A stretch of 64,000 nt of DNA, taken from positions 12,697-76,696 of the forward strand of contig JBDKJD010000003.1 of assembly GCA_039796775.1 (NCBI GenBank), given 5' to 3'. The stretch comes from Candidatus Parcubacteria bacterium. GTDB lineage: Bacteria; Patescibacteriota; Minisyncoccia; Phycocordibacterales; UBA5272. This document shows, one piece after another, positions 16,645-62,574 of this stretch. The position numbers and the translations under genes were made by a program. The notes under the pieces are model-generated. The model had not been told where the DNA came from. It saw only the letters and a program-made list of their open reading frames with translations, and searched no databases. Numbering within the stretch: the stretch's first letter is position 1; every line of letters begins with the position of its first letter.

Positions 16645-19200
16645 CTAATTACGCAAGTATTTATATTCCTCACAATCACATTTCTTCACTTTCTTTCCAC
16701 TACCACATGGACATGGGTCATTACGTCCTGCTTTCACCTTAGTATCTACGCCTGCTGTATTCTTATCAGCACCCGGGGCGTCAGGAATGACTTGTACGAA
16801 ATCATTCTGCATGCGCGCCTGCTGTGAAGCAAAGAAAGCGTCGATATTATCCAAGAATGAAATAAGTTCATGCTTAAGCGTATTCTCAAGTGATCTAAAT
16901 GCTCGCAATCCCTCTTTCTTGTATTCGACAAGCGGATCTCGCTGGCCATATGCTCTTAAGTTCACTGAACTACGAAGATGTTCCATTTGATCAAGATGTT
17001 CCATCCAAAGCGTATCAATAACCTGAAGCATCATGATACGGAATATGTGATGTACCGCTCCTTTGGTGTACTTCTCTTCTTTGTCTTTAATAAGCGTTTC
17101 TAGCTCAGGCTTAATAGCTATAAGTTCTTCAAAGACTTCATTAACAATACTTTCATCACCAAAAAGAATTCTTCTACGTTTTTTATAAATACTAGTGCGC
17201 TGATGATTGAGGACATCGTCATACTGAAGAGTGTGCTTGCGTGTATCGAAGTGAAATCCTTCTATCTTCTCTTGAGCGCCCTCTAGCGCACGAGATACGA
17301 GACGTGACTCAATAGGCTCATCTTCTGGGATACCAAAGCGGCCCATCATCGCTTTTATGTTATCTGATCCGAATACTCTCATAAGATCATCCTCAAGTGA
17401 GACAAAGAATTGTGTCTCACCTTTATCTCCTTGACGACCCGAACGACCTCTCAACTGATTGTCGATACGACGAGCTTCGTGACGCTCTGTACCTATAACA
17501 AAGAGCCCTCCGAGCGCTATCACTTCTTCTTTCTCGGCATCAGTCGCACTTGGTCCACCTAGCTTAATATCAACTCCACGTCCTGCCATGTTGGTAGCTA
17601 TAGTGACAGCACCACGAAGTCCGGCATTAGCGACTATCTCTCCTTCCTTCTCATGATTCTTGGCATTAAGTACAGAGTGAGGCACGCCTTCTCGTTCTAG
17701 ATACTTAGAAATAGCTTCGTTCTTTTCGATAGAGATGGTACCGATGAGAACTGGCTGCCCTTTCTCATGAAGCTCTTTGACTTTCTTTGCAAGCGCTTTC
17801 CATTTACCTTTCTCAGTCTGGAATATAAGATCTGAATGATCAATTCTATTAATCGGATTATGCGTAGGCACTGGTGTTACCACTAGTCCGTACACTTTAT
17901 AGAACTCTTCCTTAGAGGTCTCAGCTGTTCCTGTCATCCCTGCGAGCTTCTCATAAAAACGGAAGTAGTTTTGAAAGGTAATAGAAGCAAGGGTGCGAGA
18001 CTCTTGTTCAATTTTTACCCCTTCCTTTGCTTCAACTGCTTGATGAAGACCATCTGACCAGCGACGTCCTGGCTGCATACGTCCAGTGAACTCGTCGACT
18101 ATAATTACCTCTCCATCACGTACCACATACTCACGCTCACGTGCAAAAAGCGCCTCTGCTCTCACCGCTGTTTCAAGATGATGAACATACTTCATCCCTT
18201 CTACTGAATAGATATTAGAAATACCGAGCTTCTCTTCTGCTTTGTTGATACCGGATTCTGTGAGAGTGATTGCTCTTTGCTTCTCATCTACTGTGTAGTC
18301 TTCGTCTTTTACTAATGTCCTAGCAATCTTAGCGAACGTAACATACATCTCACTTGATTCTTGTGCGGGAGCAGAGATAATAAGCGGCGTACGAGCTTCG
18401 TCTATTAAGATGGAGTCGATTTCGTCAACGATTGCATAATGATGCTTACGTTGTGAAAGTTGATCTTTGTTATAGCCGATATTGTCTCTCAAATAATCAA
18501 AGCCAAATTCATTGTTAGTCCCATATGTAATATCTGCTAGATACGCCTCTTGGCGAGTGCAGGGCTTCAAGTAGTCGTAGACAATTTTGTATGAACCAAC
18601 ATCGTCACGCTCTTCGTCATCTGCTTTTTTATCTTTGTCTTCTGTTTCAGCGCTGTCATAAAGATATGATGATTGATGATTAATCACAGAAACAGTAAGC
18701 CCGAGAGCATCAAACACTTGCCCCATCCACACAGCATCTCGACGTGAAAGATAATCATTCACTGTAACAACATGCACGCCGCGACCAGAGAGAGCGTTAA
18801 GATACGCAGGAAGTGTAGCAACGAGAGTCTTTCCTTCACCTGTTCTCATTTCAGAAATATTACCCTCATGAAGAAGGATGCCTCCAATTACCTGTACACG
18901 ATAATGCATCATGTGAAGCGTGCGACGTGAGGACTCACGTACTAGAGCAAAAGCAAGAGGAAGTACTTCGTGTAAAACTTTCTTTTCCTCATGTTTTAAC
19001 TCATCTCCTTCTTTACCTTCGAGCTTGCCAATTACTTCTTTCTTAAGAGAAAGCCCTCTTTCCTTTAATTCTTCATCTGAAAGAGCTTTTAGCTCCTCCT
19101 CATATGAAAAAACCTTATCTACTAAAGGAAGAAGTTTCTTGATAGTCTTCTTAGACTCATCGGGGAAAAACTTTTCTAAAAATGGTATTCCAAGTGACAT
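16645..19200 (-). CDS. secA: preprotein translocase ATPase SecA
   Basis: 851 aa; DEAD-like motor motifs, C-terminal CPCGSGKKVKKC zinc-binding tail. Confidence 0.9.
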   Translation of the reverse strand: MSLGIPFLEKFFPDESKKTIKKLLPLVDKVFSYEEELKALSDEELKERGLSLKKEVIGKLEGKEGDELKHEEKKVLHEVLPLAFALVRESSRRTLHMMHYRVQVIGGILLHEGNISEMRTGEGKTLVATLPAYLNALSGRGVHVVTVNDYLSRRDAVWMGQVFDALGLTVSVINHQSSYLYDSAETEDKDKKADDEERDDVGSYKIVYDYLKPCTRQEAYLADITYGTNNEFGFDYLRDNIGYNKDQLSQRKHHYAIVDEIDSILIDEARTPLIISAPAQESSEMYVTFAKIARTLVKDEDYTVDEKQRAITLTESGINKAEEKLGISNIYSVEGMKYVHHLETAVRAEALFAREREYVVRDGEVIIVDEFTGRMQPGRRWSDGLHQAVEAKEGVKIEQESRTLASITFQNYFRFYEKLAGMTGTAETSKEEFYKVYGLVVTPVPTHNPINRIDHSDLIFQTEKGKWKALAKKVKELHEKGQPVLIGTISIEKNEAISKYLEREGVPHSVLNAKNHEKEGEIVANAGLRGAVTIATNMAGRGVDIKLGGPSATDAEKEEVIALGGLFVIGTERHEARRIDNQLRGRSGRQGDKGETQFFVSLEDDLMRVFGSDNIKAMMGRFGIPEDEPIESRLVSRALEGAQEKIEGFHFDTRKHTLQYDDVLNHQRTSIYKKRRRILFGDESIVNEVFEELIAIKPELETLIKDKEEKYTKGAVHHIFRIMMLQVIDTLWMEHLDQMEHLRSSVNLRAYGQRDPLVEYKKEGLRAFRSLENTLKHELISFLDNIDAFFASQQARMQNDFVQVIPDAPGADKNTAGVDTKVKAGRNDPCPCGSGKKVKKCDCEEYKYLRN

Positions 19201-19235: not shown

Positions 19236-19565
19236 TTAGATGCTTGATTTTAGATTTTCTTTATATTCTGTAATCTTGTCGACGATATCTGGCCGGAGTT
19301 CTTGATCTGTTATTATTCTATACCCAGTTGATTTCCACCCCCACGCACTACTGTTAGAAATAGTATTTTTGGGAATAGTGCCTGCAGCTATAACTCGCCA
19401 TCCTGTTTTGCCCAGATGGGCACTGACCAGGTCTTTATGATATATAACCGCACCCAAAAGTAGATCATCACTTTCAAGTAGAGGAAACTTTTCCTGTGCA
19501 GATTCATCACATGAAAGCACTCCAAGGTATACGATATTCATTTTCAAATAAATATCCGTACGCAA
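19236..19565 (-). CDS. hypothetical protein
   Basis: ORF only. Confidence 0.3.
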   Translation of the reverse strand: MRTDIYLKMNIVYLGVLSCDESAQEKFPLLESDDLLLGAVIYHKDLVSAHLGKTGWRVIAAGTIPKNTISNSSAWGWKSTGYRIITDQELRPDIVDKITEYKENLKSSI

Positions 19566-19568
19566 AAC

Positions 19569-19598
19569 AAAAACACTCCATGGGAGTGGAGTGTTTTT
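19569..19598 (-). terminator. rho-independent terminator hairpin
   Basis: aaaaacactccat-ggg-agtggagtgttttt. Confidence 0.6.
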
Positions 19599-19610
19599 GC
19601 GACTTGCGTA

Positions 19611-19724
19611 CTATGCACGCTTTGCTGTCTTCTTTGCGGCTTTCTTCTTTGGAGCAGCTTTCTTCACAGCCTTCTTGACTGCTTTCTTAGCTACTTTCTT
19701 TACCGCTTTCTTTTTTGCTGCCAT
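19611..19724 (-). CDS. 37-aa Lys/Ala-rich histone H1-like basic protein
   Basis: MAAKKKAVKKVAKKAVKKAVKKAAPKKKAAKKTAKRA; own terminator downstream; below track cutoff. Confidence 0.45.
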   Translation of the reverse strand: MAAKKKAVKKVAKKAVKKAVKKAAPKKKAAKKTAKRA

Positions 19725-19954
19725 AAAATTTTTATTATGCAAATAAGAGAGTTCTAATAAATTTTGATCACGACCAATGATCAGTACTCTCTATGCATAA
19801 GTATGACATTCATACATAGACACACAAGTATAATTAAAATTATTTCTGTGGATAACTTACTAAAAATATTTTTATTGTCATGTTTCGTTTATGCAAATGC
19901 GAAGAAGTCGCAAAAATAGTTGCTAGTTACTAGTTTGTAGTTAATAGATAATAC

Positions 19955-19986
19955 AAGAACTGGCACCCCAATGGGTGCCAGTTCTT
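19955..19986 (-). terminator. GC-core hairpin (aagaactggcacccca-atgggtgccagttctt) downstream of SET gene
   Basis: Perfect 13-bp stem; core motif also at 6626..6648. Confidence 0.5.
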
Positions 19987-20011
19987 GCTAGTAACCAGTA
20001 ACTAGTAACAA

Positions 20012-20566
20012 TTAACTAGCGGCCATTGCTCCGTAGCTGTGCTTCTTGGCTGTGCATCTACATCCATATGGCGCAATATGTTCCTTTACGAATTCTTCTC
20101 CGTAATCATAAACAATTTCATCGCCCTCTTTGATATTTTTGATAGCACGTATAAAGACACGACCCTTTTTAATTTCACTTTCTGCGTTAGCTGCCTCCTC
20201 ACACGCATGATTACAGTAGCGCGCAATATTCCATCTTGGAGTACCGTCAATTGTTCTATTACGTGTAACTTCGAAGAGATACTGACTTGTTGCTTTTTTG
20301 TCAGCTTGTTCTTTGTTAAGAATCTCTCCGATGTATTCAATGATGAGTTCCCCTTTCTTGATATCTTCACCTGCGAAGAGACCTAAGCCTGCTAAGCCGC
20401 GCTTTGCTTTTACTTTTTTAAAATGATGATCCGGCAACTTTTCTGTTACTTCTTTTGTTGTCCCTTTTTTTGACACAGTCTTTGCAACTTTCTTTGTAAT
20501 CTTTTTCTCTACTTCCTGTGAGAGCTTTCCTCCTTTCTTTAAAATCTTTGATTGTTTATCTAACAT
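20012..20566 (-). CDS. SET-domain protein lysine methyltransferase with Lys-rich N-terminal tail
   Basis: GLGLFAGEDIKKGELIIEYIGEIL, RYCNHACEEAANAE, DEIVYDYGEEF, post-SET CRC. Confidence 0.7.
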   Translation of the reverse strand: MLDKQSKILKKGGKLSQEVEKKITKKVAKTVSKKGTTKEVTEKLPDHHFKKVKAKRGLAGLGLFAGEDIKKGELIIEYIGEILNKEQADKKATSQYLFEVTRNRTIDGTPRWNIARYCNHACEEAANAESEIKKGRVFIRAIKNIKEGDEIVYDYGEEFVKEHIAPYGCRCTAKKHSYGAMAAS

Positions 20567-22764: not shown

Positions 22765-22955
22765 AATACAACCTTTAGCTCTTAGCTGTTAGTATTTAGC
22801 AAATACAAAACTTCATACTTAGAGTATTCTTCTGTTTTACGCTAAGAGCTCATCGCTAAAAGCTAACAGCTGCACATCTGTGGATTACTTTCGTTTTACT
22901 TAACAAAATACGTATATACTAGATCTATACACACCTAGGTCTTAATTATTTACGT

Positions 22956-23516
22956 ATGCTTAAAGAAAAAAAATCATTTTTTGAACGACTTGCAGGTTCT
23001 ATTTCAGTTGAAGAAGACGAAGATCAAATAGAATTTCAACCAGAGCAAGACGATGAAAAGGAAGAGATGACTCCAGTGCGCCAAGCAGCTCCATCAAGAG
23101 CAGCTTCTCCTGCTATTACACACGCAACTCTCCCAACGAGATCAAAGATTCATCACATCGAAGAAGAGGAAGAAGAGCCTGTAGAAGAAGGTGAGCTTTC
23201 CGTAGATGTTTATCAGACACAGAACGAGATCATCATAGAAGCTATGGTAGCTGGAGTTAAGCCTGAAGACCTTCATATCTCTATTACTCGTGATATGGTG
23301 ACAGTACGTGGAAGACGTGATGGTAACACATCTGTTGGTCATGATGATTATTTTTATAAAGAACTTTATTGGGGAACATTTACTAGAACAATACTTCTTC
23401 CTCATGAAGTAGAGATAGAAGAAGCAGAGGCCGTAGAGAAGCATGGACTTTTAATACTCAGACTTCCAAAAGTCGACAAAGCCCGTCAAACAAAACTAAA
23501 AGTAAAAAGTATCTAA
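22956..23516 (+). CDS. Hsp20/alpha-crystallin small heat-shock protein with acidic N-terminal extension
   Basis: ELSVDVYQTQNEIIIEAMVAGVKPEDLHISI...VTVRG alpha-crystallin domain. Confidence 0.75.
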   Translation: MLKEKKSFFERLAGSISVEEDEDQIEFQPEQDDEKEEMTPVRQAAPSRAASPAITHATLPTRSKIHHIEEEEEEPVEEGELSVDVYQTQNEIIIEAMVAGVKPEDLHISITRDMVTVRGRRDGNTSVGHDDYFYKELYWGTFTRTILLPHEVEIEEAEAVEKHGLLILRLPKVDKARQTKLKVKSI

Positions 23517-61987: not shown

Positions 61988-62063
61988 TGGAGCCAGAACT
62001 CGGGCTCGAACCGAGGACCTACGGTTTACAAAACCGTTGCTCTACCAACTGAGCTATTCTGGC
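61988..62063 (-). tRNA. tRNA-Thr (UGU) with encoded CCA
   Basis: Revcomp gccagaatagctcagttggtagagcaacggttTTGTAaaccgtaggtcctcggttcgagcccgagttctggctcca. Confidence 0.85.
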
Positions 62064-62574
62064 TTTTAATATTGTTTATATGTTGCATAATACTCTCTAG
62101 AAGAGAGGCATCATAATAACGTAGGGAGATTGTACCAAATTCTAGCTTTTTTGTCGAATCACTTTTTCCTTTTTTGTGAATAGTTGTTTTATAGAAAGAA
62201 GATACAGGGATTGACAATTTTTTTACCAAAAAATCTTTTAATTTCTTATCTTTTTGACCTTCGTGAATATGAAGCAAACATTTAATTCTTTGTTCATCAA
62301 TTTTACAAATAACTCTTAAAAAAGTTACAAATAAGAGCATCATATCTGGATCACTATTAGTAAAAACGAGTGTAGTTCCTGATTTTGTACCCTCCCCCCA
62401 ATATAAAGCGAGACCGATATAGTAGAGCGGTAATAGTCTTTTTTGAACACTCGTTGGAAGCACGCTCGAAAAACTGTTATTGTCTCTATTATATTTTGTT
62501 TTAAGTGATTGAGATATACTCCGTGATGAAATATTACTTTTTTTGATTATATATCTAACACCAGTAACAGACAT
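62026..62574 (-). CDS. LAGLIDADG-like homing endonuclease (single-motif type), 3' end overlaps tRNA-Thr by 38 nt
   Basis: KTKYNRD...LLPLYYIGLALYWGEGTKSG resembles I-CreI NTKYNKEFLLYLAGFVDGDGS block; weak elsewhere. Confidence 0.35.
   Translation of the reverse strand: MSVTGVRYIIKKSNISSRSISQSLKTKYNRDNNSFSSVLPTSVQKRLLPLYYIGLALYWGEGTKSGTTLVFTNSDPDMMLLFVTFLRVICKIDEQRIKCLLHIHEGQKDKKLKDFLVKKLSIPVSSFYKTTIHKKGKSDSTKKLEFGTISLRYYDASLLESIMQHINNIKSQNSSVGRATVL

Follow-up and report, generated by a model that had tools for sequence, protein, structure and literature searches.

Can two neighboring bacterial genes, one for a SET-domain protein methyltransferase and the other for a very small lysine-rich peptide, be taken to encode an enzyme and its substrate? 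The question arises for a stretch of DNA from a Candidatus Parcubacteria bacterium (GCA_039796775.1, contig JBDKJD010000003.1, positions 12,697-76,696 of the forward strand), the full 64,000 nucleotides (nt) of which are referred to here as the window. On its minus strand lie a SET gene and, downstream of it, a gene for a 37-residue lysine/alanine-rich (K/A) peptide, which an earlier note suggested could be a nucleoid-protein methylation system. We compared the region with about 170 related loci. On balance, and with moderate confidence, we favor the view that these are two autonomous genes that are neighbors by gene order, and that the peptide is probably a non-specific polyanion binder whose synthesis DnaA may control. 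The window has a G+C content of 39%, and its nearest relatives are metagenome-assembled genomes labeled Candidatus Paceibacterota, Nomurabacteria, or Patescibacteria. Patescibacteria have tiny genomes with few recognizable nucleoid proteins or regulators.

The peptide gene and its neighbors

The features on which the question turns are the following.

16645-19200, minus strand: secA, the usual downstream neighbor of the peptide gene across Patescibacteria
19611-19724, minus strand: micro-gene for the 37-residue polycationic peptide MAAKKKAVKKVAKKAVKKAVKKAAPKKKAAKKTAKRA, with its ATG at 19724 and its stop codon at 19611-19613
19953-19988, minus strand: terminator-like hairpin 3' of SET, with a perfect 15-16-bp stem, a 4-nt loop, and a weak T-tract
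20012-20566, minus strand: gene for a SET-domain protein lysine methyltransferase of 184 residues, with a Lys-rich N-terminal tail, a SET core, and a CxCx4H post-SET motif

The earlier note placed a 37-residue Lys/Ala gene about 290 nt downstream of SET on the same strand. Exactly this peptide was recovered, with an ATG 287 nt beyond the SET stop codon, and its open reading frame (ORF) is the sole K/A-rich ORF across the window. A scan with the SET protein, taking one genome per species, gave 73 loci, of which 54 share the gene order of the window. A homologous K/A ORF was found on the SET strand in 48 of these 54, that is, in all those with sufficient downstream sequence apart from L048, the SET protein of which is tail-less. 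The gap between the two genes is 184-548 nt in 37 of the 48 loci and contains 0.9-3.7 kb of inserted genes in the other 11. The 48 peptides are 21-50 residues long, keep the start MAAKKK, and usually end in AKRA, and the indels between them preserve the reading frame. Where two loci encode an identical peptide, the substitutions all fall at third codon positions (10 of 10 between the window and L006 and 8 of 8 between L002 and L024). The Shine-Dalgarno sequence AAGGAGGTG precedes the peptide ATG in lineages that use such sequences. It is absent before the peptide ORF, SET, and valS in the window, and the source organism seems not to use Shine-Dalgarno sequences. Because the ORF is conserved in 48 genomes with frame-preserving indels, third-position substitutions, and a Shine-Dalgarno sequence where these are used, it is by these signatures a real coding gene and not a chance ORF in A-rich DNA. 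An antisense ORF of 51 residues rich in Phe and Ala (19591-19746, plus strand) was rejected, as the substitutions fall at the third positions of the minus-strand frame and the promoter, Shine-Dalgarno, and terminator signals are those of the minus strand.

Gene callers miss the peptide ORF or extend it upstream through its leader, in a frame that differs between loci. A 43-residue extended peptide used as a query matched only 20 over-extended gene calls (P0121-P0140), in which the extension amounts to 20-35 upstream codons. What look like "N-terminal domains" in these entries are artefacts produced by reading a non-coding leader in varying frames.

SET and the peptide gene are, as judged from their signals, separate transcription units and do not form an operon: SET is closed off by a terminator hairpin, and the peptide gene comes with a promoter, a leader, and a terminator of its own. 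Within the clade, the block composed of hsp20, valS (divergently oriented), SET, the peptide gene, secA, and murX is syntenic, with valS present in 50 loci, hsp20 in 47, and secA in 33. Because the whole block is equally syntenic, finding SET next to the peptide gene in this clade tells nothing about a link between them; one-clade adjacency in such highly syntenic genomes is no proof of an enzyme-substrate system.

Two divergent peptide variants from the protein database are encoded between murB and secA, with no SET gene. Metagenomes were scanned with a SET-independent DNA pattern, GTTATCCACA-N100-130-ATGGCNGYNAARAA, which gave at least 120 loci, the taxonomy of these contigs being limited to Patescibacteria/Paceibacterota labels on a few SecA proteins. 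A K/A micro-ORF is present in 109 of the 120 pattern matches listed, encoding 98 distinct peptides of 10-58 residues (median 25 residues, 49% Lys, 26% Ala). Among the listed loci with at least 1.5 kb of upstream sequence, SET lies upstream in 8 of 69 (~12%; 8 of 65 after dereplication), and a search of the listed metagenomic loci with a SET hidden Markov model found no further SET anywhere in them. murB is upstream in 17 of the same 69 loci, and the remaining upstream genes are varied (ddl-like, Wzy-like, and tRNA-synthetase genes). secA, in contrast, lies downstream in 55 of the 66 listed loci with at least 1.5 kb of downstream sequence (49 of 59 after dereplication). It mostly starts 116-300 nt past the peptide ATG in the listed loci, and it lies within 1 kb in 46 of the 59 dereplicated ones. 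Approached from the other side, the loci of distant, tail-less SET proteins (L054-L068) have no K/A ORF within 6 kb.

Because secA is downstream in 55 of 66 listed loci and SET upstream in only 8 of 69, the steady partner of the peptide gene is, by this comparison, secA and not SET, and the adjacency of SET and peptide is a one-clade feature. The conservation of gene order, which the earlier note suggested as a check, gave a divided answer: the peptide gene does follow SET in 48 genomes, whereas the search from the peptide side found secA as the constant neighbor and SET only rarely. Given separate units, equal synteny of the whole block, and a SET gene in 8 of the 69 listed peptide loci, a dedicated SET-peptide methylation system lacks comparative support. 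The genes are best explained as neighbors through clade-specific gene order.

Signals of the peptide transcription unit

The peptide gene is framed by the following elements.

19847-19856, minus strand: GTTATCCACA, identical at 9/9 positions to the DnaA-box consensus TTATCCACA and placed ~20 nt ahead of the peptide-gene -35 element
19800-19827, minus strand: predicted promoter, with the -35 element TTGTGT at 19822-19827, a 16-nt spacer, and the extended -10 element TGT-CATACT at 19800-19808
19725-19792, minus strand: predicted 5' leader, with the outer stem AGAGAGT (19786-19792)/ACTCTCT (19746-19752)
19765-19783, minus strand: inner hairpin of the leader, TGATCA (19778-19783)/TGATCA (19765-19770), with GGTCG (19771-19775) on the 3' side of the loop
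19569-19598, minus strand: intrinsic terminator of the peptide gene, AAAAACACTCC...GGAGTGTTTTT, a hairpin followed by a T-run

The most constant of these elements is the box. TTATCCACA, or TTATNCACA, is the general DnaA-box consensus. The site at 19847-19856 is the only perfect copy in the window, and GTTATCCACA is invariant in all 48 genome loci, in 2 loci truncated before the ORF, and in 6 loci without SET. Of the 67 perfect copies of TTATCCACA in 811 kb, 56 precede a peptide gene; about 9 copies are predicted from composition. The box is retained in the murB-peptide-secA loci that lack SET and, more widely, in L002-L053, L063, and L074-L199, with or without SET nearby. Its distance to the -10 element is 49-51 nt in 71 of 93 loci among the metagenomic matches listed.

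A second site of this type lies elsewhere in the syntenic block.

22879-22887, minus strand: DnaA-box-like site TAATCCACA (TGTGGATTA), with one mismatch, about 70 nt upstream of hsp20
22956-23516, plus strand: hsp20

In all 47 related loci the hsp20 site reads TGTGNATAA, is perfect, or has at most one mismatch, and it is found ~72-125 nt upstream of hsp20. It lies about 20 nt before the hsp20 -35 element, in the opposite orientation. This suggests that a factor reading the box motif controls at least two promoters, with the peptide gene and hsp20 forming a small regulon.

A reading of the window box as part of a replication origin was rejected, as there is one perfect box in 64 kb, boxes with one mismatch show no excess (23 against 17.6 expected), and no dnaA gene is nearby; nor is a dnaA locus present among the sequences compared. 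Classically, rpmH is found beside DnaA-box clusters; here, in contrast, one box stands alone at a fixed promoter-proximal position, unlike an origin cluster. Boxes are clustered at one place in 1.7 Mb of loci, a short unrelated contig that the pattern scan picked up (L184, 1326-1462), where 140 nt contain four of them, three being perfect; the cluster probably marks a replication origin rather than a peptide gene.

The promoter was defined from an alignment of the 140 nt 5' of the ORF in 49 regions, which was compared with the metagenomic loci. A -35 element, TTGTRT, is positioned ~20 nt past the box and is followed after a spacer of 16-17 nt by a -10 element that reads TGT-CATACT in the clade of the window and GATAAT in other loci. 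The transcription start of the peptide gene, from which the leader is counted, is a predicted one.

The pentamer GGTCG occurs in 97 of the 109 listed leaders, compared with 2.4% by chance, 27-76 nt ahead of the ATG. It makes up the 3' side of a hairpin loop in about half of the lineages, and in others it is placed after a hairpin. The hairpin stems are lineage-specific (TGATCA/TGATCA, TGATCG/CGATCA, GCAATAAAT/GTTTATTGC, AACAACGTT/AATGTTGTT, and others), and the flanks of a given GGTCG pair better with each other than with foreign flanks (6.1 versus 4.3 bp, p = 5e-11; 5.3 versus 4.4 bp after dereplication, p = 0.025). The window leader has a stability z-score of -1.7. RNAalifold found no consensus structure in the leader alignment, and an Rfam 15 scan of the leader gave no match at the gathering score, the weak matches being to unrelated families. 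We hold with moderate confidence that the leader RNA is structured, and we propose GGTCG as a candidate new cis-regulatory RNA motif, absent from Rfam.

The hairpin and T-run at ~19569-19598 bear out the statement in the earlier note that the small gene has a terminator of its own, and a comparably strong terminator follows the peptide ORF in all inspected loci. In most lineages the secA -10 element and start codon directly follow this terminator. Often just ~8 nt separate that -10 element from the secA ATG, so that the secA mRNA may be leaderless.

The SET protein and its possible substrates

The SET protein matched the Pfam SET family (PF00856) over profile positions 1-105 of 105, with a score of 85.8 bits (cut-off 22.4; E = 3e-24). 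A total of 98 SET chains in the PDB match it at E<1e-3. The best match among solved structures is the SET/post-SET region of MLL3/KMT2C (E = 6e-16), followed by other KMT2, NSD, EHMT, and EZH proteins. The catalytic and S-adenosylmethionine (SAM) motifs G60-L-G62, Y96, N119-H120-A-C122, and E150..Y153-D-Y155 are present and align with those of MLL3. In an alignment with 51 homologs, GxG, Tyr-96, RYCNHxC, ExxYDYG, and the post-SET motif C169-x-C171-x4-H176 (20039-20062, minus strand) are invariant, and the motifs are likewise constant across 121 homologs. The GxG, NHxC, ELxYDY-like, and post-SET Cys motifs described in the earlier note were thus all found, the last of them as a CxCx4H variant with His in place of the third Cys of the canonical CxCx4C; a C3H zinc site is plausible at this position. 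An AlphaFold2 model built from 52 homologs had a predicted local distance difference test (pLDDT) score of 53 and was not used on account of its low confidence. By sequence, the protein carries every feature of an active, SAM-dependent protein lysine methyltransferase, and catalytic activity is predicted.

The protein has GxG, YxF, RYxNHxC, ExxYDY, and post-SET CxC in common with the KMT2/MLL enzymes. It differs from them in being a stand-alone protein of 184 residues with no WRAD partners, in having CxCx4H instead of CxCx4C, and in its Lys-rich N-terminal tail. This tail, also described in the earlier note, comprises residues 1-52 (KKITKKVAKTVSKK; 31% K/R) and has a composition like that of the K/A peptide. 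Two tail motifs are conserved, KQSxILKKGG near the N terminus and KLPDHHFK directly before the SET core; the middle of the tail is variable. More than 1,600 database proteins match the SET protein, and the best 120 of these are 68-99% identical to it and all tail-bearing. These proteins constitute a Patescibacteria SET subfamily with an added N-terminal Lys-rich tail of ~50 residues. The distant SET proteins of L054-L068, from Patescibacteria and other phyla, are tail-less proteins of 131-167 residues that are 40-62% identical over the SET core. They are encoded on contigs of Caulobacteraceae, Chitinophaga, Pelagibacteraceae, Burkholderiales, and Nanoarchaeota, which suggests a wide horizontal spread of the minimal SET core.

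We propose that the tail holds the enzyme on a polyanion, either DNA or RNA, which may be the same as that bound by the peptide; alternatively, the tail may serve as an auto- or pseudo-substrate. Residues 4-14, KQSxILKKGGK (20510-20557, minus strand), resemble residues 4-14 of histone H3 (KQTARKSTGGK). The nearest solved relatives are H3K4 methyltransferases. This segment could be an automethylation or pseudo-substrate site, although the likeness is a resemblance only. At the other end of the gene, a 113-nt imperfect palindrome of GTTACTAG-like repeats (19915-20027) encloses the terminator stem and overlaps the SET stop codon.

The alternative that the K/A peptide is the physiological substrate of SET, lysine methylation tuning the charge, binding, or turnover of a nucleoid protein, appears unlikely to us, although such methylation would be plausible biochemically. 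It has several points in its favor. SET is intact and under strong purifying selection, and the two genes are adjacent in the same orientation in all 48 tail-bearing loci with enough sequence, despite insertions or loss of secA. Tail-less SET genes never adjoin a peptide gene, and the shared composition of the tail and the peptide suggests that they co-localize on one polyanion. However, there is no operon, the housekeeping neighbors are equally syntenic, SET is near only ~12% of the peptide genes in the matches listed, and the peptide family extends far beyond the clade. The peptide also has no conserved target motif beyond its K/A composition, and SET enzymes in vitro often methylate any Lys-rich peptide. 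No comparative result marks this peptide as the substrate.

Precedents for such a pair exist and were cited in its support, the earlier note having invoked Chlamydia. For the Chlamydophila enzyme cpnSET, binding to Hc1 and Hc2 and methylation of Hc1 have been reported, but the Chlamydia trachomatis enzyme NUE did not methylate Hc1 (PMC3980110), so that the precedent exists but is disputed. The resemblance to Chlamydia lies in the presence in one organism of a small bacterial SET protein and Lys/Ala-rich, H1-like DNA-condensing proteins; Hc2, moreover, varies in length through Lys-rich repeats (PMC2848022), as the peptide family does. The differences are several: Hc1 and Hc2 are proteins of 125-237 residues with Pfam families of their own that the 37-residue peptide does not match, NUE is type III secreted while the present enzyme bears its own Lys-rich tail, and the genomic linkage of SET and peptide is here clade-specific only. 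We know of no developmental cycle in these Patescibacteria, unlike in Chlamydia. A second precedent is the Methanosarcina mazei enzyme Go1-SET, which methylates the chromatin protein MC1-alpha. As in the proposed pair, a minimal prokaryotic SET enzyme acts there on an endogenous small basic DNA-binding protein. MC1, however, is a folded protein of ~90 residues with a specific target, K37, and the present peptide is of low complexity and has no defined site. Apart from any relation to the peptide, the tail-bearing subfamily is a small, clean candidate for endogenous bacterial lysine methylation outside pathogens.

The peptide as a polycation

We return to the reading that we favor, in which the peptide gene is autonomous. 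The 37-residue ORF would be translated into an intrinsically disordered poly(Lys/Ala) peptide, one of a family encoded by micro-genes that are widespread in Patescibacteria and conserve no more than composition and termini. Every copy would be monocistronic, with the box, a sigma-70-type promoter, the GGUCG leader, the ORF, and a strong terminator, followed usually by the secA promoter. The peptide is about half lysine and has no acidic or bulky hydrophobic residues. Because this composition and the termini are all that is conserved and the length varies freely, we infer a disordered polycation that acts through its charge. It may serve nucleic acid as a counter-ion or as a compaction factor irrespective of sequence, in the manner of Hc2, protamine, or the C-terminal tail of H1. 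Of the polyanions, DNA is the likeliest target, favored because of the DnaA-consensus site; polyphosphate is also possible. A factor recognizing TTATCCACA, by consensus DnaA, would control the synthesis of the peptide.

The peptide has no match to any Pfam or NCBIfam family at E≤1, including Hc1 (PF07432), Hc2 (PF07382), and the ribosomal-protein models. It does not contain the winged helix of linker histones H1/H5 and, with no Pfam match, is too short for a globular domain. The description of the peptide as H1-like in the earlier note is therefore apt for its composition, which is that of an H1 tail, but does not extend to family membership: no Pfam or NCBIfam match to Hc1, Hc2, or a linker histone was found. 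We regard the peptide as a functional analogue of Hc1, Hc2, and the linker histones by composition and not as a member of their families. Its closest parallels are AlgP, PhaF, and Hc2, which have a similar K/A/P/V repeat composition, hypervariable length, and disorder, and target DNA, RNA, or polyphosphate. Coxiella ScvA/Hq1 are also K/A-rich, H1-tail-like polyanion binders. AlgP, PhaF, and Hc2 are, however, mostly larger proteins or domains on folded modules, whereas here the whole product is 10-58 residues long, and the rigid promoter with a DnaA-box consensus, the GGUCG leader, and the position before secA further distinguish the present module.

Several points weigh against this reading as a whole. 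A single property of the peptide, its composition, suggests DNA binding, and peptides of 10-15 residues would be very small for a nucleoid protein. The box also precedes hsp20, so that the regulator could be a stress factor instead of DnaA. Within the clade the leader shows weak covariation, with double changes at one pair, and the stability z-score does not discriminate (mean of -1.3 for 135 leaders versus -1.1 for a control region). The metagenomic scan pattern demands the box and an MA[AV]K[KN] start, which places box-less copies outside the sample. As regards the autonomy of the two genes, SET may be encoded elsewhere in genomes in which it does not adjoin the peptide gene, and an enzyme-substrate relation could thus be compatible with non-adjacency. 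Lastly, the tail-bearing SET subfamily was found only in the clade in which SET adjoins the peptide gene. This coincidence and the like composition of tail and peptide are the only hints of a link, and common descent explains them equally well.

A doubtful alternative, which we rate somewhat below the enzyme-substrate relation, is a micro-protein that associates with RNA or the ribosome, either as a tiny lineage-specific ribosomal protein comparable to bS22, bL37, or Thx or as a general RNA chaperone; GGUCG in the leader would then be its autoregulatory site. Autoregulated ribosomal-protein genes typically have structured leaders in which a loop motif is invariant, the present gene is monocistronic with a strong promoter and terminator amid housekeeping genes, and K/A-rich disordered regions can bind RNA, as in PhaF. 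Like the peptide gene, the genes for bS22, bL37, and bTHX are very short, often unannotated ORFs with very basic products. Those products, however, are conserved sequences of fixed length that fit rRNA pockets, and the present peptide varies from 10 to 58 residues, conserves only its composition, and matches no NCBIfam or Pfam ribosomal-protein model. The DnaA-box-type site, moreover, points to DNA- or replication-related control.

A more elaborate possibility joins the two genes again. The K/A micro-gene might be near-universal in Patescibacteria and encode a minimal, protamine- or H1-tail-like chromosome counter-ion, the synthesis of which would be tied to replication initiation through the DnaA box and tuned through a novel GGUCG leader RNA; in one clade, a SET protein with an acquired, matching Lys-rich tail would have been recruited beside it and would methylate the peptide. 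We regard this combination as improbable. If true, a methylated K/A counter-ion would be a stripped-down bacterial analogue of histone-tail methylation.

The constancy of secA raises the further alternative that the micro-ORF is a leader peptide or upstream ORF for secA that senses translation or Lys-tRNA and modulates read-through of the terminator. One more ORF bears on this point.

19236-19565, minus strand: ORF of 109 residues between the peptide gene and secA in the window, poorly conserved

The proximity of secA (<1 kb downstream in 46 of the 59 dereplicated listed loci) extends over deep lineages in which the upstream genes vary, a terminator lies between the ORF and secA, and the conservation of composition but not of length is as in leader peptides. 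We nevertheless rejected a secA attenuator or upstream ORF as the main model and consider it very improbable. The distance from the stop codon to the terminator varies (~10-30 nt), with no evident antiterminator, and the terminator is followed at once by a -10 element belonging to secA. The unit persists intact where secA is 2.6-8.7 kb away or absent, and in the window itself 410 nt and the 109-residue ORF intervene. The peptide also has no signal sequence, which rules out a secretion monitor of the SecM type.

Least probable of all, and barely worth entertaining, is that SET is a secreted effector that methylates host histones, like NUE, RomA/LegAS4, or BaSET, and that the small ORF is irrelevant: its closest structures are those of eukaryotic H3K4 methyltransferases and its sole match in an NCBIfam scan is the Legionella effector AnkI/LegAS4, but that match (39.8 bits) is far under the cut-off of 550, SET has no signal peptide or secretion motif, its gene lies in a housekeeping block with 70-90% identity over many metagenome-assembled genomes from free-living habitats, and the known hosts of Patescibacteria are mostly prokaryotes.

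The open-access literature yielded nothing on SET proteins or DnaA boxes of Patescibacteria and nothing on Lys-rich micro-proteins encoded before secA, and neither in Rfam nor in that literature did we find a description of a module that precedes secA and is composed of box, promoter, GGUCG leader, K/A ORF, and terminator. The micro-gene, conserved and probably highly expressed but missed or wrongly extended by annotation pipelines, may specify one of the main polycations of the cell across much of the bacterial tree. The invariant DnaA-consensus site and the leader motif provide handles on transcriptional and post-transcriptional control in these little-studied organisms.

Two minor observations concern other ORFs of the window. 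The 109-residue ORF at 19236-19565 has no family match, and a homolog (36-41% identity) is present in only 5 related loci. Farther along, the 5' part of a tRNA-Thr gene (61988-62063, minus strand) is overlapped by the 3' end of a 182-residue ORF on the same strand (62026-62574, minus strand).

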